Below are positions 2,872 through 61,883 of a stretch of 64,000 nt of DNA, one piece after another. The stretch spans positions 930,001 through 994,000 of the forward strand of contig OZ287068.1 of NCBI GenBank assembly GCA_965645245.1, read 5' to 3'. This DNA is from Massalongia carnosa. Its lineage: Eukaryota. Positions within the stretch are counted from its first letter, which is position 1. Every line of letters starts with the position of its first letter. The position numbers were made by a program, and so were the translations under genes. Below the pieces are notes generated by a model. The model was not told the origin of the DNA, ran no database searches, and saw only the letters and a list, made by a program, of their open reading frames with translations.

Positions 2872-4679
2872 CTACGCCAGAGCGCCCATAGGGTCCCATA
2901 ACGGTAGTCTAGGTATTTGATCAGTCTATCAGCCCCAAAATGAAGGAAACAAAGTCAGTCTTACACGCGAGGCTTCTGATTCAAGATCTCCCGAACCTCC
3001 TTTGATACGAACCTGCCACAAAAATTAGTACAGCTTGCGGGCAAATAGTAAATGTTAGTGAAGGACATATATACCTTGGATCGACCACGGCTTGGTATAC
3101 AAAATCGCTCATCCATCGATCGCTCATGACGAAGAATCCCTTCGTCCCAGCCCCTTCGCCCCATGAGTTCTCCACCCGCCACCTGACCGGTCTTCCGTCC
3201 TCTACATGTACAGCCGTCAATACCATAGCATGGGTCATTTGGCTCTCGCCCGTCTGAAGACGTTGAGTTTTGGAGAGACCAAGACGGATGTTGAATCCTA
3301 GTTCGTAATTGATGAGGTTGGGATCCATGATGCCAGAAGCTGAGTTTGAGAATTTGCCAACGTCACTGCCGAAGAATACAGGAATCTCACTACGGAGCAT
3401 TGTGATACAGGCAGCCTTGATTATTTCCATATCGACATTGACGTACCTCACGCCCCGCATCCCAATAATGTTGCCAAGTCTGCTGACGCTCAAAAGTTGA
3501 CCATAGGAGTTTCTCGGGTCGTTGACCAGGCTGAAAAGCTTATTGATATCCGTACCTGAGTTCGCTTGTACGCTGACCTTACTCGATAACTCTGCTGCAA
3601 ATTTCAGTGGCGTGCTCTTGAGACTTAAAAACTCATCGTTCTTGTCATAGAAATCCCACGTAAACTCCTTTTCAGGGTTTGGAGGAGGCCCGAGCATCAA
3701 TGTCAGCATTAGATGAACCTCTCGGATCATCTTTTCTTTGACACCCTGGAGCGAAGACTTTGTATTTGATGATTTGGTGGAGAGCCTCCGCAGCTGGAGA
3801 GCATCTTCACGAAGTTTGGTGGTGACCAAGGAGTTCATGGCATTCGAGCTCATGGCGTTGTACGAATCTGGATAGAGGGTTTGCGGAACCTTTGATGGGT
3901 TTAAATCAGCCTTCATGTCACTGGAGAGACTCCTGAGGAATTCTTACAAGGCCATATTTTTCAACAAGATTCGCTACCATATCCCATTGCCCGCCATCCC
4001 CCACTGGCGCATCCAGCAACGTTTGCACTAACCTCCCCTCCAAATCTTCTGTGGCAGTGTCCAGGATTTGTTCCAGGAAATAATTAGCCTTTTCCAGCTT
4101 ATCCCAATAAAACAGGTATGCTTGACTAAGTTCGAAATCTTTTAGATTGTATCTTCGCATAATAGCCACGCGAAAAACGTTTGTCGCCGCGAACAGCCAG
4201 CATCGACCTGATGATCGCTGGTTCGTGACAGGAGAGCCTTCAAGACTAATCTTAATGTTGAAATTCTGAGTATCAGCTATTTTCGTAGAGCGCTGAGTCA
4301 AGACGGTTCGCGGGTCGCTCGTCGTCAAGGCGGACAGAGCGAGACGATTCTATACTACATCAGCTGTGTTTCTGCAAACCTAAACCCGTAGAACTGGGAC
4401 CTTTGGGTCCTCAAGAAGCTCCTTTTCCCATCGTTTCGTGGCACTGATCGACAGTGTAGTGGAGCGAGGCGAATATTGTGGTGCTGCACTTTCATTAGCA
4501 AAGGTTAGGAAAGGACCCTTGCGGTATCTCCAAGACTTGCGCTTATCTTCCTCAACGTGCACGAAGTCCATGTCAGCTTCGGTGTTATCAGGGTCCTGGA
4601 ACTCCAAAGCTTGAAGCCTTTCCGCCAACTGCGCGCTCAACACGGAGTGCTCCGGCATTTTGGATGGAGAAGATCCCAT
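2872..4679 (-). CDS. LAP3: Bleomycin hydrolase / cysteine aminopeptidase (peptidase C1B), multi-exon
   Basis: [12 protein letters not shown] (catalytic Cys), [10 protein letters not shown] (His), WRVENSWG (Asn); final exon [11 protein letters not shown] with stop at 2874-2872; GT-AG introns join ORFs 4380-4679, 3918-4328 and 2981-3916. Confidence 0.95.
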
Positions 4680-5220
4680 AGCGCTGGTTCCAAGGCGAAA
4701 GGTTGCGATGAAATAGGAGGCTAGGTAGACTGGTGAGCTAGATAAACGCTCAGAAGATTAAAAGGAATATGTGCATTGGATCAAGGATCGTCTGCGCCTC
4801 CAAACTAGGAAGCGATCTACAGCTCGTGACGATAAGCGTTATTGTGAATTAGAATAGGATACCTACCATGCTACCTATCTATACAGCTCGCAAGACAAAG
4901 TCGTTCAGCATTCTTTATACTCTTCCAATTTCATAATGCAATAGAGTTAGAGTACAAAATATATGCCGAAGACCAACCCCTCCAATCCGATCCCGTTCCA
5001 TCCCAAGCAACAAGTCCCATGTTTGCCCTAAAGTGTTCATTACGTATCGGTTCATTACTCGTTGAACCCCGCTAGATGATGCTCATCATGCTCACCACAA
5101 CAGCCGACGCCCGGAGTACAAGCCTATAACAGGTCTCCCGTTTGACTGCATGAGTAGGCTGATGGACAAGTATCCAGTCGTTTCAAGGGTAAATCTTTCG
5201 TCCGAGACAGATGCATCGGT

Positions 5221-26114: not shown

Positions 26115-26964
26115 TCACTCCCCCGCCACCACCTCCCCCAAACTTTTCTCCTTGTTCCCGCCCAGCACGTTCTCCTCCACCCACGTAATCGGCCACCCAA
26201 CCGCCGCGCCCAGCACGCACAAGCCCGTCGCAAACAGCTGCAGCACGAGCAGCAGCGCCGACAGGATCCCGAACGGGCTGACGAACTTGACGAATTCGTT
26301 GACTTGGTAGAGGTCGTTTTGGGACTTGATAAGGTATTTGGGGGGATCCTTAGAGGCGGGGTACGATGGGCGGTGAGGGGTAGCAGGAACAAGGTGAAGG
26401 ACTGTGACTAGGGAGACGCGAGCGGCGAGGACGGGGAGGGCCCACAGGCGGAATATTTGGTGGAGGGTGACATAGAGGGTTCGGGAACGGGAGTCGTAGG
26501 CTTTTTTATTGTTTTTATAGGGGGAATTGTTAGCTGGACCGGAAGGGGGTCTTAAATGAAGCTGATCAGATAATCGACAGGGGGGTGGACGAGGTTCCCC
26601 CCCTCCCCAAAAAGAGGGAAGTCCTCGGTTTGTTCCGCGAACTTACCAACGCTATCAACCTCCAGCTCGATGCGCGGGCTTAAGATCTTGTACCAGCGGT
26701 AAATGCACCAGATCAGCCATCTGGATCCGTTGAAGCTGCCGGTGCGGCAGAACGGGTGGGTGAAGGAGGCGGTCGGGGTGAAGTATTTCTCGAGCGTGGC
26801 GCGCTGGATCGAGGGCGCGGATTGCGTCAGAGTGTGGATGATTTGGGGGATCTCGGCCACTGGGTCGGGGGTTAAAATGTTTTTTATGTTTTAGTTTGGG
26901 GGGCGCAGAGAGGCTGGGGAAAATCAGAGGGGGAGAAAAGGGAGAGTATACCTGGATCTTCCAT
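26115..26964 (-). CDS. Conserved fungal protein with probable NTF2-like domain and C-terminal hydrophobic segment (3 exons)
   Basis: Spliced MEDP/VAEIPQIIHTLTQ...YFTPTASFTHPFC...IYRWYKILSPRI.../YDSRSRTLYVTLHQIF...YLIKSQNDLYQVNEFVKF...EVVAGE*; canonical introns. Fold assignment from recollection only. Confidence 0.75.
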
Positions 26965-27196
26965 TGAATCAATAGGTTATGGGGAATGTTCCTGGCAAAC
27001 GGAGTCGGAATCATCGCTCAAGAATTGTGGGATAGCATCATGGACAAACGCAAGCGTGAGCCATAGTAGCTATGACGTCATTGGTACTTAACCATACAGA
27101 CTTGGCGCGCTAAAGGGGGTGTCTAATTCATTGACCAACGTTTATTAATCGTCGGCTAGTCTCTCGCTTACCTCAGCCGACTCGACTCTAGTCGGG

Positions 27197-28524
27197 CACG
27201 CGGGGGACAAAAAAAAAACTACACCAAAATTTAACCGGGTTCAACCCCCCACCAAAACACAAGCAATTTCCATACAATTTTGATGGGATAATCACCATTT
27301 CAACAACCAGTCATCCAATTCATTCAATCTATTCAATAACCAGTCATTTTACCCTCACCATCCAAAACAGCTCTCAATCTATCTGGCATAGTAGACACCC
27401 GTTCATTGATAAATGCCTGGGAAACGTTCGCCCACCCCTCATAAATTAGCCCCTTGGTCGTATCATCATCCCAATGAGGATATTTTTTTAAATATTGCTT
27501 CGGGGCCTGCCAGCAATTTTCTATGGGGGCCAAATCAGGTGAACATGGACAGTTGAAATAGTGCTTCAGATCGTTGTTCTGCTTCCAAGTGCGTACAATG
27601 TTTGATTTGCCTGGTCCATGTCCAGAATCACCGTCTTCTTCTAAGACGAAATCGTGTTTTGCTTCAATCCAGGGCTTCACAATAGGCTCCAATATAGAGT
27701 CGATATAGACTCGTTGACTCATATTTCCATTGGAGTTTCCAGGAACTCTGTAAAAGTAGATATCTGACTTGAAGTCATGACCTGCAGCAGCCCAACAGTG
27801 ATGTCTCTTCTTGACGGCCTCGTCTGGTTCATCTGCTTCTTGAATACAATCATGACAATAACGTTCACCTAATCTTCGTATGATGCGTAATTTGCCCTGA
27901 GGTCCCCATCCAAAGTGCACTTCGTCACTAAATCGAACTTGTTTCCAGTCTTCTGCATTTGGATATCTAGAAAGCATAGCATCTGACCACTTCATACGAA
28001 GCTTTCTTGTCTTCTCGTTCACCCATCCCTTTCTGCACGCAATGCATTTGTGATAATCCATGGTGCCCATGATTCGTTGAATGGTTTTGCCACTGCAGTC
28101 TAGGCCTACTTCGAAGCCCAATTGCTCCCATGTAAGAGCGCGCGCCTCCATACCTTCTTCTTCCAATAGCCGTTCCATTTCTCTAATCAATTTAGGCGTA
28201 ACAATTTTGTGACGCCCACGAGCTTCAGAAACATCGGAATTATTATGATGACGGCGTGATGAGGCTCCTTCACGCAGGTATGCATAGCCCCTCGTACGTT
28301 CCACATCAAATGTGCGAAAAACATCCTCTTTGTGATAAGAAATGCCTTGCTTTTCGCAAAATTCAACGGCTCCCTGAATTTTAGCTTTGGTAGGAGTCTC
28401 GATATGTTTAGAATTCATAATAATGATAATTATCCCATCAAAATCGTATGTAAATTGCTTGTGTTTTGGTGGGGAGTTGAGCCCGGTTAAATTTTGGTGT
28501 AGTTTTTTTTTTGTCCCCCGCGTG
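27197..28524 (-). mobile_element. Tc1/IS630-family element with 96-bp TIRs, CAC...GTG ends and flanking 5-bp TCGGG direct repeats
   Basis: TIRs 27197-27292 and 28429-28524 (4 mismatches by eye); TCGGG at 27192-27196 and 28525-28529; one intact transposase inside. Confidence 0.92.
27333..28418 (-). CDS. Tc1-family transposase (DD37E), intact, 361 aa
   Basis: ATG 28418 (MNSKHIETPTK); VRFSDEVHF, LEEDGDSGH, SPDLAPIENCW; 37 residues between second D and E. Confidence 0.92.
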   Translation of the reverse strand: MNSKHIETPTKAKIQGAVEFCEKQGISYHKEDVFRTFDVERTRGYAYLREGASSRRHHNNSDVSEARGRHKIVTPKLIREMERLLEEEGMEARALTWEQLGFEVGLDCSGKTIQRIMGTMDYHKCIACRKGWVNEKTRKLRMKWSDAMLSRYPNAEDWKQVRFSDEVHFGWGPQGKLRIIRRLGERYCHDCIQEADEPDEAVKKRHHCWAAAGHDFKSDIYFYRVPGNSNGNMSQRVYIDSILEPIVKPWIEAKHDFVLEEDGDSGHGPGKSNIVRTWKQNNDLKHYFNCPCSPDLAPIENCWQAPKQYLKKYPHWDDDTTKGLIYEGWANVSQAFINERVSTMPDRLRAVLDGEGKMTGY

Positions 28525-28639
28525 TCGGGGAAAGCAAAGTTCGTCTTTTCAACTTTTACACGCAAAAAATCAATCAAATAGCAATGGGAATTTTTTTCTA
28601 CAAAGATCAAGCATGAAAAATGTTATAATAATAGTTACA

Positions 28640-30657
28640 CTAATAATAACCCAACTGCTCCTGAACATCATCCTCGTCGCTGTCGTCGACATCGTCGCCT
28701 ACTTCCTCTTCTATTTCAAAGGCAACGAAGTCTTTTTGTAGACGAATAGAATCACCTTCACCTATAAATCGTAGGTTTTGATCACCTACAATATCCATGA
28801 TAAAGATAGTCTCTGTCTCTTCCTCTTCATCATTGAATACATGAGTATCTTTTACTCCTTTCTTCGTCTTTTTTTTTTGGTCTCTTCCGTCTGCCAAGTA
28901 ATGTTGCTCGCCTTCCAAATGGCCTCAGGATCATCAATGGGATTCAACATTTCATCGGATATACTAATACCCTGTTTTGCGAGGTCTTTAACATGTTTTA
29001 TTCTGATCTTTTCATTCTTTCGAGCGATAACACCTTCCGCGTGTACACTATCTCTTTTCATTCGCCATATTCTCATGAAGTTGTTGTGTTCTTGTTTCTT
29101 TTCTATCTGCTCATCTTTTTGCTGTCTTTAAGCAATTGCTCGTTGCGCATCCTCCTTCGTGAGTCCTAATCCTCCGTCTGTCGAGTAATTAGGTCTTAAT
29201 CGCTTGCGAGAAGTTGCTCTTTGTAGTAATTCATTGCTTCTTCGCTCATGATGAAGTGATAATTCGAAGTTCGTAAGCGTCGATTTGGCAACAACTTCCT
29301 TCGTATTACTCACGAATTCCTCTAACTCCTGTTCCCGGACTGGATCACTCCATTGTGTATTATCGCGAATTTTGGGTAGCCATTCAAGTAATCCTCTTTC
29401 AACATCATCAAACGTTTTAGGTTGAATTCGTGGCAACGTTGGGAGAGATGATGTTGAACAAGAAGAAGAATTATTCTCACTTTGCGAAGGTACAAACCTC
29501 TTTAGCTGTTCAGTGCATTTCTTCTCATTAATAGGCCACATTCCAGATTTTTCAAAGGCAGATTGAATAGTGGATTTCTTGAATGTGTTATCTCGTATTT
29601 TGGTGAGATCTTGACAAAATCGAGTTATTGTATACTCTACATTGAACTCCGCAATCGCATCTTGAATGGCCACATCATGCCAATTTTTATAAGGTTGAAA
29701 CACTACTACATCAAGCGGTTGCATACAATGCGTCAAGTGTGGTATCAAAGGATAAGGACGAATCCAGTTTTCGTTGGCAAGCTTGATGAATTCAGGAGTA
29801 ACATGACTACCGTGATTATCCATGAGCATCAACTTCCAATGACTCTCAGATCCTGCATCAGAATTTTCAATGTAATGTTGCAGATATGCAATCGCTATTT
29901 TATCCGATGTGAATCCATTTTCTGACGAAACAATTCGAGTTCCTTTGGGCAGTTCGTCTGCAAACCAATTGCTCATCATATCATGACCTTGTATGACAAG
30001 TAAAGGAGGTGGCGGATAATCACCGGCGGCGTTTATATTCTCGAAAATGGTGATAGATTTTCTATTCTCAGAACTAATAGAATAATACTCATTTACGTCT
30101 GTTGGAACCAAAATTTCATGTGCTTTCATGCAGCCAACTCGAAAACCAGCCTCATCAAAATTGATGATATTTCGTTTATTCTTGATATTCAGCTCTCGAA
30201 GAACCACCCGATAATCAGCGAACCATGCTTCAACGTCCTTCACTTGTCCCGCCGTATAGCGAGCGACTGCTAGCGGTTTAGTCTTAATCTTATGTAAATG
30301 GTTGGATTTCCACCATATTCCAAACCATCGCTTAGTAGGACCTTTATAATCAGCATTCTGACTTCACTTCAGACTCTTGATCGCGTTGAATATCAGTTCA
30401 TGCGTCGGTTGAACACCATATGTAAGTAACGAGCGAATGAACTCATGTATTGCTTTGATCTGATGCTTCTCCAATATCTTATTATGTCCTCCTCTCTTCT
30501 CGACTTCATTCAACGCGCTGTTTTGAGCAAGTGAACTTTGTAAAGTGGTACGAGGAATGTCAAATATGCGAGCAGCGCATATCTTGCTTTCAAGTGGATT
30601 TTCTATTAGAAACTGCTTAGCATCATTCAGACGCGTGACAGTATCATTACAATTCAT
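28640..30657 (-). pseudogene. Disrupted pogo/Fot1 transposase (HTH + DDE_1)
   Basis: AARIFDIPRTTLQ HTH, NFDEAGF, LMDNHGSH, THCMQPLDV. One frame from ATG 30657 broken by TGA at 30366-30364 and TAA at 29130-29128, plus a probable frameshift at the T10 run 28869-28878. Confidence 0.9.
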
Positions 30658-32041
30658 GATTATGATGATGATCAATAATGAAATAGTTGATGTAGTCAAA
30701 TGCGTCGTGTTGATGGAATGGAAATAAAATTGCGAAAAGACGAACTTTGCTTTCCGCCGAACTTTGCTTTCCCTCGAGTCGGCCGAGGTAAGCGAGAGAC
30801 TAGCTAGCCGACGATTACATTGCGGCGTTAACTAACACTGAGCACCTATTTATTTGGAACCTGATTGCCATGTTCGTATCAACCTGTCTTGGCGCAGCAG
30901 ATCACGTCTACCAGGAATGCTGAGTCCTTTAGCAAAATATTGAGCGAAAGCCACAGAGATTGGGATTGCCAAGGGGCATATTAGGAACTGGTAAGCAATC
31001 CTTTATTTGCGAAACGTTTGTCGGCCTCACGCTTAAAGTCCGTTCTGGAGATCTTCAAAAATCTTTCCTCGGGTCGTCTTCTGTGGGTTCTTGGTCGACA
31101 GGCACATCCACTGTTGCGTAGACTTTATGGGGGATCTTTGTCCCCCATGTTTTTCAATGTTAGATTCTTTGCTTCCTTTATTGACCTGAAAATTCCGCAG
31201 CATGATTTGCCCATCATCTTTCAAAGGCCCATAGTCAAGTCGATTCACTATTAAGCCCATGCAGTTCAGGGGAGGGATCCATGCATACGTTGACCACCTC
31301 GTTATCTTTACGACTATAGTAAAGCAGACTTCTTTACTTCAATGGTACTACAAAGAGTAGATTGATAAGAATACCGAGCCTGCGTAAGGGATCACCCAGG
31401 TTAGCAAAGAGTATTCGGAAGATGGTCTGGAAAACCTAAGTATCGGGGGCGAAAATAGCTGTCTCGACTGAGGTGGAGCAAGGTTTCTGCTCTGTAATGT
31501 GAGCACTTGAGATTAAGATGGGCCCCTATCGAAACAGACTTACTACCTTGCTGGCATTAGATTTGCCTTGCGTGGACAAAGAATGCTTCGAAGAGGAAGC
31601 CTGCTTGGCCTTTGCCGACCTACGTACGATTTAAATCTTTGATTAGTCGAAAATAGAGGACTCGCACATAGGAGGCGGTTTTTGTTCATATTGAAGTGTT
31701 AACAAATATGTCACATGACTTATCGTGCAAAGACGAAAAATCGCATAGGGCTAAACAGAAGCTATTGCTTTTCCTTCAGGCTATATCTTTATTCATTATC
31801 ACTAAGACGTTCTGTTTTCATTTCTCGAGAAGCTTGGACTATCTCGAAAATCTGTATCTGAAGCTGATTCAGACTAACGCGGTACCTCTTTTTCCAGGAA
31901 TTCATGATAACTTCTTCCTCCTTCTACAGCCTTTCGCTCGCAGCTTAAAAGACATACTCTGAACATACCCAGCGTTCAGTTGTATACGCCAACGTGGTAA
32001 TAGAGCATTCTGCCTGGCTTCCAGCCTTCTCATTTAGCAAT

Positions 32042-55979: not shown

Positions 55980-56269
55980 TGTTGAATATTCAACTCCTAC
56001 CAGTACAGTGAACACCTACCAGTTCAATGAACATAGCACCTACGACTGCCCAAGATGGACAGAGCACCTACAGAAACCGTAGATGCCGTATTAGGCTTAG
56101 CCTAGAGATTAGATAAGATCAGCTCAGATAATCTTATCACCTCGCTTAGCAGAGGGTGACCAGTTATGGGACAAAGACTGCTGAACAGCACTCTTCATCC
56201 TTAACATCACGGTCATACATACCATTTTTATCATAGCCATATAGCCATAGTCATATACCTATTTCAACA
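55980..56269 (+). repeat. 5' LTR (290 bp)
   Basis: TGTTGAA...TTCAACA; no differences from the 3' copy seen by eye. Confidence 0.97.
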
Positions 56270-56281
56270 GGTTATGAGCCC
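56270..56281 (+). promoter_or_regulatory. Primer-binding site complementary to the anticodon arm of initiator tRNA-Met (half-tRNA primer type)
   Basis: GGTTATGAGCCC directly after the 5' LTR, as in yeast Ty5 and similar to Drosophila copia. Confidence 0.85.
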
Positions 56282-56824
56282 GGAAGGGCGCTATCGATTC
56301 AGTCACGAATCGAATTGCTCATCCGCAGCACTACAGTGCATAATAGCTAAGCATCATCGTTTACAAAAAAAAAACCCCTTAGATGCAATACTAAAAAATT
56401 TCTTTGCGTACTTAGAATTTACCTCACCACGATTATCTATCGTGAACTACGCACACGCATCATTACACGAAATTCAAATGCACAATACCTACAAAGACCT
56501 TGGACACCAGACAGGCCGTTAGCCCAAAGGCCCAAGGCAATCTCAACAAACCTTTGAATAGCGTGTATGCCTGGAGATTAGAAGGAACGATGAACCTCTA
56601 AAGACCAAAGGATACCACTATGTCAACTAGGTTCAGGGAGCAGGAAGAGATACAGACCCATCTTGGAAAAGTAGTCCTTCCTTGCCAAAAGAGATTTCTT
56701 GAACGCCACAGAAGGGAAAACATGGGAGTAGTGAAAGTGGAAGAACCCTGTTTCATTTAACAGGCCCTGTGCCTGTTAAATGAAAACGGTATATCCCTGT
56801 TCAGACTCTGTTTTTCCTTGTCGT

Positions 56825-57074
56825 CAAGTGATAGATAAAAGTTCACTAGGATACAAGCCGATGATAGGTCAAAGTTCATCAGGTTACAATCAAGCCACCA
56901 AGTGATAGATAAAATTTCACTAGGATAGAAGCCGATGATAGATCAAAGTTCATCAGGTTACAATCAAGCCACCAAGTGATAGGTAAAAGTTCACTAGGAT
57001 ACAAGCCGATGATAGATCAAAGTTCATCAGACTACAATCAAGCCACCAAGTGTTAGACAAATTTTCACTAGGAT
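56825..57074 (+). repeat. 74-bp tandem repeat, about 3.4 copies, in the Copia 5' leader
   Basis: Units start at 56825, 56899, 56973 and 57047. Confidence 0.95.
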
Positions 57075-57266
57075 ATGGGCTTGGAGCAAATATTGCTAGG
57101 ACAATGAGGTGCATGATGATAAGTAAAAGGAATGCTGCTTGTTTTTCTCATAAGGAGAAGTCAACACATCATCCTCCTACTTTATCCCTCACACATTGTA
57201 TTATAGAACTCTAAGATATAAAAATCAAGTTCTTCATTCACAAGCTTTCTACTCTTCATTCACAAG

Positions 57267-58208
57267 ATGTCTAGTTCTACTCAAGACGTGATTCAGTTGT
57301 TAGAAAAAGCGGAAGATTATCCACAATGGGTTGTGCACACCGAGGGCATTCTGAAGCAAAAGAATTGTATCTTTGCTATTCAAGACAACATTGCCGCTAT
57401 CACGTATCAGACAGTCAAGCGCAAGTACTTGGAGATGGGCTTCACCGAGGCGAATCTCAAGGATGAACAAATCTTTACCAAAGTCGGAGCTGACGTTGAA
57501 AAGCAGAGCCTTCTCATGCTCAAGGCCGAAGGAATCATTCAAATGCGTGTCGCCCCACAGCATCACACTCTGATATCAACCCGCACAGCTGGCGATATGT
57601 GGAGAATCTTGAAGATCAAGTTTCAGGACATCGCACCCATGAGCATCACCGACATTCTCTACAACATGAACTCCAAGAAGATGACGAATTATGAGAATGT
57701 CACTCAATACTGCGCTGAGTATGAAAAAGCATTGAACTCCATAAAAGGCATGATAGATGAGGACTCGGAACTGAACGCAAAGGGAGCAGAACAAGTCCTT
57801 CAAGGATACTTGTTACGAAACGTCATCGAGGACTATCTACCCCTTATAGCTCAACTTCGTCGGGATTGGATTACTGGCAGATCGAACCTCACGACTGCAT
57901 GCAGATCAATCACCGCTTACTCCATCAGCAGGCCAGAGAGGAAGGCACTCCACATCAATGCTTCCAGAACTGGCGTTGCCGGAAACAACGGAAAAGCACC
58001 ACCAGGAACTTGCACCTTTCCAGAATGTGTCCGAAGAGGGCGGACTTCCCACTTACTAGAGAAATGCTTTCAGAAATACCCAAATCTGAGACGTCAAACA
58101 TACCCCTTGGAGTCTATGAAGACAAGAGGAACAAGGACCTCTGATTCCAAAACGGAAACGGTCCCGACATCCACCGTATCAACAGACCTACCAACTGTGA
58201 GCAGTTGA
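57267..58208 (+). CDS. gag: Copia Gag
   Basis: L...EDYPQW N-terminal motif, TAGDMWRILKIKF capsid motif, C-terminal C-C-H-C knuckle; ends in TGA, in frame with pol. Confidence 0.9.
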   Translation: MSSSTQDVIQLLEKAEDYPQWVVHTEGILKQKNCIFAIQDNIAAITYQTVKRKYLEMGFTEANLKDEQIFTKVGADVEKQSLLMLKAEGIIQMRVAPQHHTLISTRTAGDMWRILKIKFQDIAPMSITDILYNMNSKKMTNYENVTQYCAEYEKALNSIKGMIDEDSELNAKGAEQVLQGYLLRNVIEDYLPLIAQLRRDWITGRSNLTTACRSITAYSISRPERKALHINASRTGVAGNNGKAPPGTCTFPECVRRGRTSHLLEKCFQKYPNLRRQTYPLESMKTRGTRTSDSKTETVPTSTVSTDLPTVSS

Positions 58209-61200
58209 CTCACAAAGGTCATGACCGTTAGACTACAGAAGATCATGACTATGACAAGTCTCAGTAGAAGTTCTTGGCTATTGGACAGCGCGGCAGATAT
58301 GCATGTATGCAATCACAGACCCTCTTTCACTGACTACATAGACTATCCTACAGGACTAGCAGGATCAACGTCCACAGGCACATCGCCAGGAAGAGGGACT
58401 ATTCAAAAAACTTTGACATCAGAGGACGGATCACCTTGTTCAGTTTTGACCCTCAACAATGTACTTTACATTCCTCAATGCCCTGTGAGCCTCGTCAGCC
58501 TTGGACTACTCAATCAGCATTCTATTTTCTATGATAACTCGAACTGGAGACTGTTCCTTGAACCTACCAAGAAAATCATATGTTATGTACCCAGAGTTAA
58601 CAGCAACTTCATGCTACAAACCATAGACACTCTAGATATGAGGATGCATCTGAACAAGATTGACGAGAACACTTATCAAGAAGAAAACGTCGCTATTCAT
58701 CAAACTTTCATAAAATTCAAGCTCACAACTTGGCATGCACGTCTTGGTCATCTCAACATACCGACATGCCGAAAGTACCTGAAAACACTGAACATAACGT
58801 TTGTTGACGATATCAATCAGGGTTGGTTCTGTCATGCTTGCGAGATGGGGAAAGCCACCAAGATATACAATCGAACTCCACAAGAGAAAGCCACGGAGAT
58901 CTTCCAGAAAATAAACTCCGACATGGTAGGACCAATCAAACCAGTAGGGCTCCTTGAAGAGCTCTACTTCTTCACCTTCACCTGTGACGCCAGCAGATAC
59001 ACTCATGTTTATACGGGACACAAAAAAAGTGAATGGTTTGATCACTTGTTGACATACAACAACATGGCTCAAAACAAATCTGGGAAAGCAAAGCCAATAA
59101 GCATCTTTCGCACTGACTTCGGCACAGAACTACGCAGTCACAAGTCAGATAACTGGTTCCTTCAACAAGGTATAATATATGAACCTTCCGCCACATATTC
59201 TCAAGAAGAAAACGGTGTCGCAGAACGAATGGGTAGGACCATCATGGACATGACAAGATGCACAGTTATTGGTGGAGGAATTCCAGATTATCTGTGGACA
59301 GAAGTCGTTTTAGCCATGGTTCACACCAAAAACGTTAGACCAACAAACGCCTTGGGAGGTAAAACCCCCTATGAAGTCTTTGAGAACAAACCACCCAAGC
59401 TAGATCACTTGAGAGTACTTGGATCCACCGTTTATGCATTGATTCATGAACAAGAGCGAAAGGGAATGAACAGCAAGTCTGCAAAATTCGCCCCAAGAGC
59501 TCAGAAAGGAATCTTGTGTGGATATGACGGAAACACTATCTATCGCGTCTTCCTGGAAAAAGACTACAAGGTCATTCGAGTCAAAGATCTACGAATTCAT
59601 GAAGATGCTATAGACAAGAATGAGACTGATCTGCCTACATACGATTCCGTGATGATTGTTGAAGAAGATGAGAATCTGCCTAAAGCCATTTCCAACTCTT
59701 CCAGAACTCAACCACGGTTAAATCCCGAAGTCACTGAAGCTTCAAAACGAGGAAGAGGTAGGCCCAGGAAACATGCTCATGTAGCACAAGTACTGGCCCT
59801 TCTGTCTAATGAAGCACTGACTGAACCAGAGCATATCTTCACAATGGTAGACAAAGATGAAGAAGATCCACTCATACTTCTAGCCAAGGAAATGGAAAAA
59901 GAGGGAGCAGCAAACCTAAACGATCTTGATGCGTTCGTTCAATCAGACATAGCTGAGCCACAGACATATCATCAAGCAATGAACTCCAGCTATTCAAACG
60001 AATGGAGCCTGGCAATGAACGAAGAGCACAAGAGCCTCATGGAAAACAACACCTGGGACACTGTACCTATCGAAACCATGAAACTTGGACACATAGCATT
60101 AAGCGGTAAGTGGGTATATAAGCTAAAGAAAGATGTGAATGGAAACATCACCCGCTTCAAAGCTAGATGGGTCGTCAAGGGATATCTACAACAATACGGA
60201 GTAGACTTCGATCAAACCTTCGCTTCTGTGGTCAAGCCGATGGCCTTTCGTCTGATATTCGCATTAGCTGCTTATCATGACTTGGATATCGAACAACTCG
60301 ATATAGTGACAGCTTTCCTCAATGGCTTCATTGATCAACTCATCTATGTTCACATGCCAAAAGGTTATGACGTACCCGGCATGATATGTAAACTGAACAA
60401 GGCCCTGTATGGTCTAAAACAGTCTCCTCGCCTCTGGTATGAACGACTTTCTACCTTTCTGCTGCAAAAATTAGGACTCGAGAAGCTTCACGCAGACCAC
60501 AGCATCTTCGCCACACCTCAAGGCATAAAAGGTCCCATCGTTACTTCTTTCGTTGATGATCTGAACATCATAGGTCCAAAGGGCTCCCAAATGATCACCG
60601 AAGTCAAGAGACAACTCAAGCTAGCATTCAAAATGGTAGACATGGGACCGATCAGTTACTACTTAGGTCTCAAGGTCGAACGAGATCGAGTCAAAAGGAT
60701 CATCAAGCTATCTCAACCAACCTATATTGAGAAAGTGCTAGAAAGATTTCATATGCAAAATGCAAAAACAGCCAATACTCCCATGCGAGAAGAATGTCTT
60801 TTCACCAATGAATCCCAAGCCTCCGACAAAGACATTAGACAATATCAAACCATTGTTGGATCCATCATGTTCGCGATGATAGAAACAAGACCCGACATTG
60901 CTTTTGCAACATCTGCAGTCAGTCGACATTCGAAAAATCCAAGCAGGACACACATGGAAGCGGCCAAACATATTCTCAGGTATCTTAGCGCTACCAAGGA
61001 CAGAGGTATCACCTTCGGCGGAGGAGACCTGACAATACAAGGGTATTCCGATTCCGACTGGGCCGGAGACAAGGAAGAACGCAAGTCAACGTCTGGTTAT
61101 GTCTTCATGTTAAACAATGGACCCATAAGCTGGTGCTCCAAAAGACAAACAACCGTCGCATTATCATCAACTGAAGCAGAGTATATGGCACTTACCTTAG

Positions 61201-61586
61201 CAGCAAAGGAGGCCACATGGCTACGTTTACTGATGACCGAACTTGGATTAATGACTATAGACAACGAATCCCCAACGGTAAATGTGTTAAGAGGAGAAGG
61301 CACCATCGCATTAAAAGGCGACAATCAAAGCGCCATAGCCCTTGCCAACAATCCTGTCTTACACGCTAGGACTAAGCACATAGACATTCAGCATCACTTC
61401 ATCCGGAACGAGGTCCTCGAGGGACGAATCGACCTCACCTATGTCTCAACAGAAGACATGATAGCAGACGGACTGACAAAACCTCTCACTCATGTTAAGT
61501 TCTTCTCGTTTGTCAGACAATTACACATGGATAACAATTCAACCACGGTTGAACCTACAGGCAAAACAAGTACTGGCAGGACTTGA
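58209..61586 (+). CDS. pol: Copia Pol (protease, GAG-pre-integrase, integrase, RT, RNase H); frame open from the gag stop, first ATG at 58221
   Basis: WLLDSAA (PR), WHARLGH, SDMVGP / RTDFGTE / ENGVAER (IN), KARWVVKG, LYGLKQSPR, FVDD (RT), YSDSDWAG, SSTEAEY, KHIDI, ADGLTKPL (RH). Confidence 0.97.
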   Translation, partial: LTKVMTVRLQKIMTMTSLSRSSWLLDSAADMHVCNHRPSFTDYIDYPTGLAGSTSTGTSPGRGTIQKTLTSEDGSPCSVLTLNNVLYIPQCPVSLVSLGLLNQHSIFYDNSNWRLFLEPTKKIICYVPRVNSNFMLQTIDTLDMRMHLNKIDENTYQEENVAIHQTFIKFKLTTWHARLGHLNIPTCRKYLKTLNITFVDDINQGWFCHACEMGKATKIYNRTPQEKATEIFQKINSDMVGPIKPVGLLEELYFFTFTCDASRYTHVYTGHKKSEWFDHLLTYNNMAQNKSGKAKPISIFRTDFGTELRSHKSDNWFLQQGIIYEPSATYSQEENGVAERMGRTIMDMTRCTVIGGGIPDYLWTEVVLAMVHTKNVRPTNALGGKTPYEVFENKPPKLDHLRVLGSTVYALIHEQERKGMNSKSAKFAPRAQKGILCGYDGNTIYRVFLEKDYKVIRVKDLRIHEDAIDKNETDLPTYDSVMIVEEDENLPKAISNSSRTQPRLNPEVTEASKRGRGRPRKHAHVAQVLALLSNEALTEPEHIFTMVDKDEEDPLILLAKEMEKEGAANLNDLDAFVQSDIAEPQTYHQAMNSSYSNEWSLAMNEEHKSLMENNTWDTVPIETMKLGHIALSGKWVYKLKKDVNGNITRFKARWVVKGYLQQYGVDFDQTFASVVKPMAFRLIFALAAYHDLDIEQLDIVTAFLNGFIDQLIYVHMPKGYDVPGMICKLNKALYGLKQSPRLWYERLSTFLLQKLGLEKLHADHSIFATPQGIKGPIVTSFVDDLNIIGPKGSQMITEVKRQLKLAFKMVDMGPISYYLGLKVERDRVKRIIKLSQPTYIEKVLERFHMQNAKTANTPMREECLFTNESQASDKDIRQYQTIVGSIMFAMIETRPDIAFATSAVSRHSKNPSRTHMEAAKHILRYLSATKDRGITFGGGDLTIQGYSDSDWAGDKEERKSTSGYVFMLNNGPISWCSKRQTTVALSSTEAEYMALTLAAKEATWLRLLMTELGLMTIDNESPTVNVLRGEGTIALKGDNQSAIALANNPVLHARTKHIDIQHHFIRNEVLEGRIDLTYVSTEDMIADGLTKPLTHVKFFSFVRQLHMDNNSTTVEPTGKTSTGRT

Positions 61587-61593
61587 GGGGGGG
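61586..61593 (+). other. Polypurine tract
   Basis: AGGGGGGG immediately before the 3' LTR. Confidence 0.85.
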
Positions 61594-61883
61594 TGTTGAA
61601 TATTCAACTCCTACCAGTACAGTGAACACCTACCAGTTCAATGAACATAGCACCTACGACTGCCCAAGATGGACAGAGCACCTACAGAAACCGTAGATGC
61701 CGTATTAGGCTTAGCCTAGAGATTAGATAAGATCAGCTCAGATAATCTTATCACCTCGCTTAGCAGAGGGTGACCAGTTATGGGACAAAGACTGCTGAAC
61801 AGCACTCTTCATCCTTAACATCACGGTCATACATACCATTTTTATCATAGCCATATAGCCATAGTCATATACCTATTTCAACA
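61594..61883 (+). repeat. 3' LTR (290 bp)
   Basis: Direct repeat of 55980-56269 followed by TSD CAAGC. Confidence 0.97.

Follow-up and report, generated by a model that had tools for sequence, protein, structure and literature searches.

Can a transposase of the Tc1 kind insert its element anywhere other than at a duplicated TA dinucleotide? A TA target counts as a shared feature of the IS630/Tc1/mariner superfamily (excerpts of PMC7325037 and PMC7386202), and TA duplication is treated as its defining trait, by which annotation tools classify elements. The question is raised by a transposon in a 64,000-nt stretch of Massalongia carnosa DNA (contig OZ287068.1 of assembly GCA_965645245.1, positions 930,001 to 994,000 of the forward strand). 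This whole stretch is termed the window here, and all coordinates without a contig name are counted from its first letter. TA is missing from both junctions of the element, which encodes an intact Tc1-like transposase and has TCGGG on either side. A first-pass annotation made from the letters alone had read these facts as a Tc1-related lineage with an altered target site duplication (TSD), and the comparison with relatives described below bears that reading out. With a probability of about 0.85, we consider this to be a Tc1-like DD37E element of a large ascomycete family that inserts with a 5-bp stagger and duplicates the core of an 11-bp palindrome, TAS/CCWGG/STA (slashes mark the cuts).

The junctions can be read directly in the window. 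The left one reads ...CTCTAG-TCGGG-CACGCGGGGGAC... and the right one ...GTCCCCCGCGTG-TCGGG-GAAAGCAAAG, with the element filling the interval between the two pentamers (Table 1). The insertion point lies in the left subterminal region of a host transposon of the pogo/Fot1 type, adjoining a GAAAGCAAAGTTCG repeat whose unit occurs twice at the right end of this pogo and once at its interrupted left end. Contigs of four public sequencing runs (X4, X6, X7 and X8) were aligned to window positions 26700-29300, and three of them (one in X4, two in X6), which represent other pogo copies, run across the site without the insert. They have the sequence ...CTA + G(28524)TCGGGGAAAG, that is, CTA+GTCGGGGAAAG from 28524, and the empty-site sequence is CTAGTCGGGGAAAG, with one TCGGG only. 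Because uninterrupted pogo copies have one TCGGG and the filled site two, the duplication is real for the window copy. Comparison with an empty pogo copy was a check suggested together with the first-pass annotation, which also expected the empty site to resemble the other end of the host; that end reads ACTCGAGGGAAAGCAAAG, roughly alike but no close match. The pogo itself has plain TA duplications (27146-27147 and 30816-30817) and therefore provides, in the same window, an internal control for the canonical mode of insertion.

The main evidence comes from relatives. The transposase has 409 homologues at E<=0.001, with named ones from Bimuria, Clathrospora, Pyrenophora, Botrytis, Colletotrichum and Macroventuria, and an alignment of 38 homologues was used to fetch DNA of metagenome contigs, which gave 79 loci holding relatives of 35-69% protein identity. 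Ends were located by local alignment of the upstream sequence with the reverse-complemented downstream sequence, and the conserved terminal motif was then scanned for. Excluding six duplicate loci (L042, L045, L058, L068, L076, L077) left 73 distinct ones. Also dropped were two elements truncated at a contig edge (L016, L032) and four false pairs in which a motif-like word inside the element had been taken as the left end (L013 at 240, L038 at 57, L046 at 1608, L066 at 3019), while L005 and L024 were added from the local-alignment step. The final set comprises 32 elements with both termini and flanks present, namely the window copy and 31 elements in 28 loci. Among them are a further full copy in L017 (TATGT), a 571-bp derivative with an internal deletion in L057 (CCTTG) and a 226-bp miniature inverted-repeat transposable element (MITE) in L078 (GGTGG).

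Perfect 5-bp flanking repeats were found in 22 of these 32 elements, and two further elements match at four of the five bases. The perfect repeats comprise 21 different sequences: TCGGG, CCTGC, ACCCC, CGTGG, CCTAC, GTACG, CCTCG, TATGT, ACAAG, GCAAG, CCTGG, CCAAG, CCGAC, CCCGG, GCCGT, CTTGG, CTCGC, CCTTG, GGTGG (twice, at different loci), CCTAG and CCTCT. When right flanks were permuted among the elements, the mean number of perfect matches was 0.13, and not one of 10,000 permutations attained 22; with either register displaced by 1-3 nt, 0-1 matches remained. TA on both sides was seen in none of the 32. The repeats do not stem from an extended inverted repeat, because many are non-palindromic (ACCCC, GCAAG, TATGT, GCCGT, CTCGC, CCGAC), and a check by eye upheld both L003 (ACCCC) and the most distant case, L050 (GCCGT, 35% identity). 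Variable 5-bp duplications beside other copies, which had been proposed as the test of the altered TSD, are thus present among the metagenome relatives.

The termini themselves are conserved to the last base across clades, and the similarity between copies stops exactly there. In relatives the ends read CACGCGGGTRAC, CAAGCGGTTGAC, CTCGCGG... and CAAGGCCTGG or CAAGGCCTGGCC, each followed by an A-run. The CAC...GTG ends pointed out in the first-pass annotation hold for the window copy but are not constant in the family, as relatives begin CAAG or CTCG. A midpoint-rooted FastTree tree was built from 62 sequences, including pseudo-proteins with X at stops and leaving out the six duplicate loci, and 5-bp elements are present in each of its major clades. 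Since the end sequence follows the transposase clade, ends and transposase evolve together. An exhaustive HMMER search returned 458 cluster representatives (50% identity) at E<=1e-30, 4,183 at 1e-10 and 14,913 at 1e-3; judged from these sequence matches, the family is a sizeable one within a much larger Tc1-like cloud. As a separate observation, L004 (2895-4059, 67% identity) carries an intact 353-aa open reading frame (ORF) and the left terminus CTAGG/CACGCGGGTCGC, while a search of the 500 nt downstream revealed no right terminus; the copy may be one-ended or rearranged.

What sequence does the family choose? Rebuilding and symmetrising the 22 empty sites yields T(-5) A(-4) S(-3) C(-2) C(-1) W(0) G(+1) G(+2) S(+3) T(+4) A(+5), the 11-bp palindrome given above. 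Of its bases the middle five are duplicated, with a TA three bases beyond each cut; C is absent from -4 and G from +4. The pattern recurs in the outer flank of an independent, larger sample of 92 distinct termini, paired or not: numbered from the terminus, the flank has T in 49 of 92 at -8, A in 49 of 92 at -7, C in 46 at -5, C in 51 at -4, G in 51 at -2 and G in 50 at -1. The GC content is 69% in the duplicated bases versus 48% in the flanks; the earlier description of a GC-rich duplication is therefore correct but incomplete, the pentamer being the core of a palindromic target rather than merely GC-rich. The window site, TAG/TCGGG/GAA, agrees with the consensus at 8 of 11 positions. Among the loose ends listed, two X6 contigs run into the left end from other flanking sequence and start to match at 27195 (GG+CAC), which fits the target consensus without amounting to a count. 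The sequence TACCCTGGGTA is given as a target oligonucleotide for in vitro strand transfer.

By Pfam, profile and predicted fold the encoded protein is a genuine Tc1-type transposase, as had been claimed from its motifs. Its ORF is open over 361 aa and contains FSDE, EEDGD (reported earlier as EDGD) and SPDLAPIENCW. The catalytic residues are D165, D262 and E300, and the 37 residues between D262 and E300 (DD37E) depart from the DD34E spacing of Tc1 sensu stricto by three extra residues after the second D. Pfam DDE_3 scores 32.1 bits, above its cut-off of 28.6, HTH_Tnp_Tc3_2 scores 26.0 bits, below its cut-off of 31.5, and the matching protein-atlas clusters are of the Tc1-like/DDE_3 kind. The family profile aligns over the whole length of the catalytic domain of Sleeping Beauty (SB) SB100X (PDB 5cr4) at E 1.4e-16, with D/D/E aligned and a 3-residue insertion following the second Asp; in this PDB profile search Mos1 was not matched by the family sequence profile. 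An AlphaFold2 model made from the alignment (pLDDT, the per-residue confidence score, 75; pTM, the predicted template-modelling score, 0.57) places helices at 10-48 and 75-118 of the N-terminal region. Searched with Foldseek, it matches SB 5cr4 at a template-modelling score by target of 0.71-0.73 and 24% identity; SB, Mos1 and SETMAR are found at E 3e-9 to 8e-6, full-length Mos1 complexes over 360-380 columns, and the Tc3 DNA-binding domain 1u78 at E 0.047 with probability 1.00.

Two regions of the protein set the family apart from SB. The 3-residue insertion falls within a Gly-rich loop, at the positions of SB P247/K248, these two residues being replaced by S-G and followed by the Gly-rich insertion. 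The loop reads E-D262-G-D-S-G-H-G-(P/T)-G-K and is conserved at G266 (36/38), H267 (35/38), G268 (35/38) and G270 (33/38). In the clamp-loop region there is a pair C188-x2-C191 (31/38 and 36/38) along with H207, invariant in the 38 aligned members, and a second pair, C125-x2-C128 (37/38 and 36/38), stands just before the catalytic domain. In SB, the aligned clamp-loop stretch contains one Cys only and lacks CxxC; the C125/C128 region precedes the aligned part. C125/C128, C188/C191 and H207 could possibly make up a zinc site around the clamp loop. In SB, P247 and K248 (three and four residues after the second Asp) together with H187 of the clamp loop shape target choice, and in Mos1 R186 of the clamp loop stabilises the bent TA target (excerpt of PMC8934666).

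The element (43% GC) has the layout expected of a Tc1-like transposon, with terminal inverted repeats (TIRs) around a single transposase gene and a length at the lower end of the expected range of about 1.3-2.4 kb. No second ORF accompanies the transposase ORF in the 1.3-kb elements. The TIR, first given as 96 bp, is longer (Table 1); 97 of 103 positions pair between the arms, and outward extension is blocked by the mismatch of G at 27196 with T at 28525. Of the terminal 18-mer the window has two sites only, both at element ends, with 0.04 expected from shuffles. ACAAAA/CACCAAAA words recur at positions 11, 27 and 55 of both arms and are likely candidates for transposase-binding sites. The poly-A tract of the TIR at 27209 shows one-base variation among copies, and position 27723 is A in the window versus C in every contig aligned, in all four runs.

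Table 1. Coordinates of the Tc1-like element, its parts and its host transposon in the window (HTH, helix-turn-helix)
Feature	Position	Strand	Basis
Left TSD copy, TCGGG	27192-27196	.	Window sequence and single TCGGG in insert-free pogo copies
Whole autonomous element, 1,328 bp	27197-28524	-	Sequence, TIR pairing, depth in run X4
Left TIR, 103 nt, start CACGCGGGGGACAAAAAAAAAAC	27197-27299	+	Inverted-repeat search, pairing
Right TIR, 103 nt, ending GTCCCCCGCGTG	28422-28524	-	Inverted-repeat search, pairing
Right TSD copy, TCGGG	28525-28529	.	Window sequence and insert-free pogo copies
Transposase ORF, 361 aa, putative N-terminal HTH region and DD37E catalytic domain	27333-28418	-	
Codons of residues 263-271 (GDSGHGPGK), Gly-rich loop	27606-27632	-	Alignment, conservation
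Host pogo/Fot1-like DNA transposon	27148-30815	-	TIR arms 27155-27185 and 30774-30804 (31 nt), DDE_1 ORF 29128-30243

The element is present in many copies. In run X4 its depth is about 5,800 versus 132.8 for the unique left flank, a ratio that gives about 44 copies, and these are nearly identical, since only two base positions within the element vary in that run. The cluster of the transposase at 99% protein identity has 42 members. With an intact ORF and about 44 near-identical copies the window copy looks active, and we take the element to be an autonomous, recently active cut-and-paste transposon. Runs X7 and X8, labelled as two further organisms (C and D), also contain the element (27210-28524) at >=99% identity and a depth of about 2, with the flanks and the pogo without cover and one contig stopping exactly at 28524. 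This signal could reflect the same fungus at low abundance, or an element residing in other species.

How might a Tc1-type enzyme produce such a duplication? From the anatomy and the established chemistry of Tc1/mariner elements, the transposase would bind the TIRs and then excise the element, and the transposon 3' ends would be joined to target phosphates 5 bp apart, versus 2 bp in canonical Tc1/mariner transposition. Gap repair would then duplicate pentamers resembling CCWGG. A palindromic target points to a symmetric transposase dimer whose subunits would each read one T-A-S-C-C half-site. The changed stagger may come from an altered geometry of the target-binding surface, for which the Gly-rich loop (262-271) and the CxxC pairs with H207 are the candidates.

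Several points weigh against the 5-bp reading or against parts of it. In the window copy taken alone, G precedes TCGGG on both sides, which formally allows a 6-bp GTCGGG and an asymmetric element; this ambiguity is resolved at 5 bp by the relatives. The empty sites are paralogous pogo copies rather than the same locus of another strain, and their joints have 20-21 letters on the short side, found at 88% likeness. In the survey of relatives, usable paired ends were missing from 45 of the 73 distinct loci, and the source genome enters the flank count through the window copy alone, not through its other ~44 copies. As for the mechanism, the 3-residue insertion, or DD37E spacing, is not by itself the cause, because other DD37E families, TRT and impala, are reported to duplicate TA. 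The pLDDT of the model is below 50 for residues 262-269, with low confidence also in the clamp loop (174-194), and because the model is unreliable in both regions, the loop and the cysteine pairs are put forward as hypothetical determinants, as is the dimer geometry.

The exceptions within the set of 32 belong to the same side of the balance. Flanks differ at 4-5 of 5 bases in eight elements (L001, L012, L020, L023, L025, L034, L040, L079). L020 (668-2024, of the CAAGGCCTGG clade) has a perfect 7-bp repeat, CCCAGGT, centred on CCAGG, which hints at a stagger of 7 in its lineage; the two relatives closest to it, L023 and L025, come from short contigs and have no repeat. For L001, ACTAC fits only if an extra base is allowed at the right junction, and L012, L034, L040 and L079, like L023 and L025, are without a flanking repeat. 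Even in the repeat-less exceptions the similarity between copies starts exactly at the conserved terminus, and their individual flanks still tend to end GG or begin CC, as the target consensus predicts. Chimeric assembly of multi-copy elements or recombination between copies may, on our assumption, account for them, several being on short contigs. Two further relatives, L010 and L022, show TA bordering a short inverted repeat and lack a 5-bp repeat. Set against the family terminus (GCG at 4-6, C at 12, then the A-run), this TA occupies positions 1-2 of the element, and both loci nest among 5-bp lineages in the tree; a TA-duplicating sub-lineage seems unlikely from these alignments. L039 has a Tc1-like CAGTG-type sequence near its left end, its right end being cut by the contig edge.

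Placed beside known systems, the family is closest to Tc1 and SB. It shares with them a single ORF of about 360 aa, TIRs, a length of 1.3 kb, an RNase H-like DDE domain preceded by a putative N-terminal HTH region, catalytic residues that align with SB D153/D244/E279, the SPDLxPIENxW motif and the 5'-CA...TG-3' ends typical of Tc1 elements. It differs from them in its conserved CxxC pairs, in a D-to-E spacing of 37 versus 34, and in a duplication of 5 bp at TAS/CCWGG/STA versus TA; of the superfamily's hallmarks, the DDE triad in an RNase H-like domain is present, and insertion at TA with TA duplication is absent. Zator, with a 3-bp TSD, and Tc4/Tc5 of C. elegans, with TNA, are likewise Tc1/mariner relatives with duplications other than 2-bp TA, but these are of 3 rather than 5 bp and the target differs. 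The impala subfamily duplicates TA, in contrast to the 5 bp seen here. In its fungal host, its length of about 1.3 kb and its DD37E spacing it is like the window family (excerpt of PMC7325037). Fungal Fot and Fot-like pogo elements also depart from 2-bp TA within IS630/Tc1/mariner, TAA and TAAA having been described as new TSD types, but their duplications are TA-based, of 3-4 bp, and made by a DDE_1/DDxD transposase (excerpt of PMC7386202), whereas the window family has a 5-bp GC-rich duplication with TA outside the duplicated bases.

Has the family been described before? The best-surviving alternative is that catalogues such as Repbase or Dfam already list both the family and its 5-bp duplication, for instance under 'Mariner/Tc1'. 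This is a serious possibility, though one we lean against. The family is common among sequenced ascomycetes (Pyrenophora, Bimuria, Clathrospora, Botrytis, Colletotrichum), and curators building consensus sequences would have noticed the flanks. The open-access full text, a scope outside which Repbase, Dfam and subscription journals lie, yielded no Tc1-like family with a 5-bp duplication, so the suggestion that the lineage is possibly undescribed stands within that scope. For this group, TA, TAA and TAAA only are given in the available excerpt of PMC7386202, TA in that of PMC7325037, and TA still in a 2026 review of Tc1/mariner. Literature matches to 5-bp TSDs were rejected as LTR (long terminal repeat) retrotransposons (S. 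osmophilus, M. graminicola) or other superfamilies, and the sources found on Molly/Pixie and Pyrenophora gave no TSD data.

Less well placed, and in our view unlikely, is the idea that the family is a separate deep lineage of IS630/Tc1/mariner, comparable in rank to Zator, Gambol or pogo, that lies outside Tc1 proper and has never used TA. The Tc1 matches are moderate (DDE_3 at 32 bits, the sub-threshold HTH_Tnp_Tc3_2 and 24% identity to SB), and there is a gap between the 458 representatives at E<=1e-30 and the 14,913 at E<=1e-3. In addition, the rows seen of the host table in PMC7325037 list only pogo for Pyrenophora teres (one row) and Colletotrichum (two of six rows), so that the family may have been missed there. 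Against a deep origin, impala, a fungal subfamily of Tc1, is also DD37E (same excerpt). The best PDB profile match, moreover, is to SB, a Tc1 member, while Mos1 goes unmatched by sequence, and the SPDLxPIENxW motif and E as the third catalytic residue are Tc1-like.

Transib elements make 5-bp GC-rich target duplications and have CAC...GTG termini, and the window element has both a 5-bp TSD and CAC at its ends. This likeness, to which the first-pass annotation had drawn attention, is superficial, because CAC is not a family constant and 5'-CA...TG-3' ends are typical of Tc1. It nevertheless prompts a further explanation, in which the Tc1-like ORF is a passenger and the TIRs are moved in trans by an unrelated 5-bp transposase, for instance of the Transib/RAG1 kind. 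Mobilisation in trans does occur, since there are short non-autonomous copies (the 571-bp L057 and 226-bp L078), but these are best read as MITEs of the same family. The transposase is unrelated to that of Transib, with no RAG1-core-like match in Pfam, PDB profile and fold searches, which lead to Tc1/mariner. In every lineage examined this ORF, at 35-99% identity, is enclosed by ends of one and the same kind, and the ends track its clade, with no other ORF to hand in the 1.3-kb elements and with starts of CAAG or CTCG, not CAC, in relatives. Given also the intact DDE triad of the window protein and its many near-identical copies, a passenger ORF is very improbable. Hardest of all to sustain is an ordinary TA-duplicating Tc1 whose TCGGG match arose by chance, or whose eroded ends once abutted TA: a single-copy 5-bp match has odds of about 1 in 1,024, not negligible across a genome scan, and L010 and L022 do show TA at an inverted-repeat boundary, but the many varied pentamers against 0.13 expected, the lack of any element with TA on both sides, termini conserved to their last base and the lone TCGGG of uninterrupted pogo copies leave it next to no room.

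If the 5-bp reading of the window family is right, the stagger and target of a Tc1-type transposase are evolvable, with the Gly-rich loop and CxxC pairs as conserved candidate determinants. It is an even bet, on our reading, that an old, widespread and undescribed ascomycete branch of Tc1-like elements left the TA target for a 5-nt stagger at an 11-bp palindrome with a remodelled loop and possibly a zinc-stabilised clamp. From such a branch one could learn, as from a natural experiment, how cut spacing and target choice are set by a DDE transposase dimer, and it might supply a Tc1-type integration tool of greater site selectivity. A preference for an 11-bp palindrome narrows the choice of sites far more than TA does, a property of practical interest for fungal insertional tools. 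The candidate determinants also bear on the re-targeting of Sleeping Beauty (excerpt of PMC8934666). For annotation, copies and MITEs of the family in fungal genomes are liable to be misclassified or given wrong boundaries, and 5 bp combined with CAC invites confusion with Transib.

Other mobile elements of the window deserve mention. The host pogo is itself multi-copy, with a depth in run X4 of about 3,000-5,000 versus 132.8 for the unique flank, and as its DDE_1 ORF is only 371 aa, the pogo transposase may be split or truncated. An intact Ty1/Copia LTR retrotransposon occupies 55980-61883. Its two 290-bp LTRs (TG...CA) share 100% identity, CAAGC stands on either side as a 5-bp duplication, and the element encodes a 1,121-aa pol with RVT_2 (58221-61586) as well as a gag-like ORF (57267-58208); the insertion appears to be very recent. 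Within it, a short way downstream of the 5' LTR at 56825-57075, three tandem repeat copies follow one another at 74-bp spacing and 93-100% identity.

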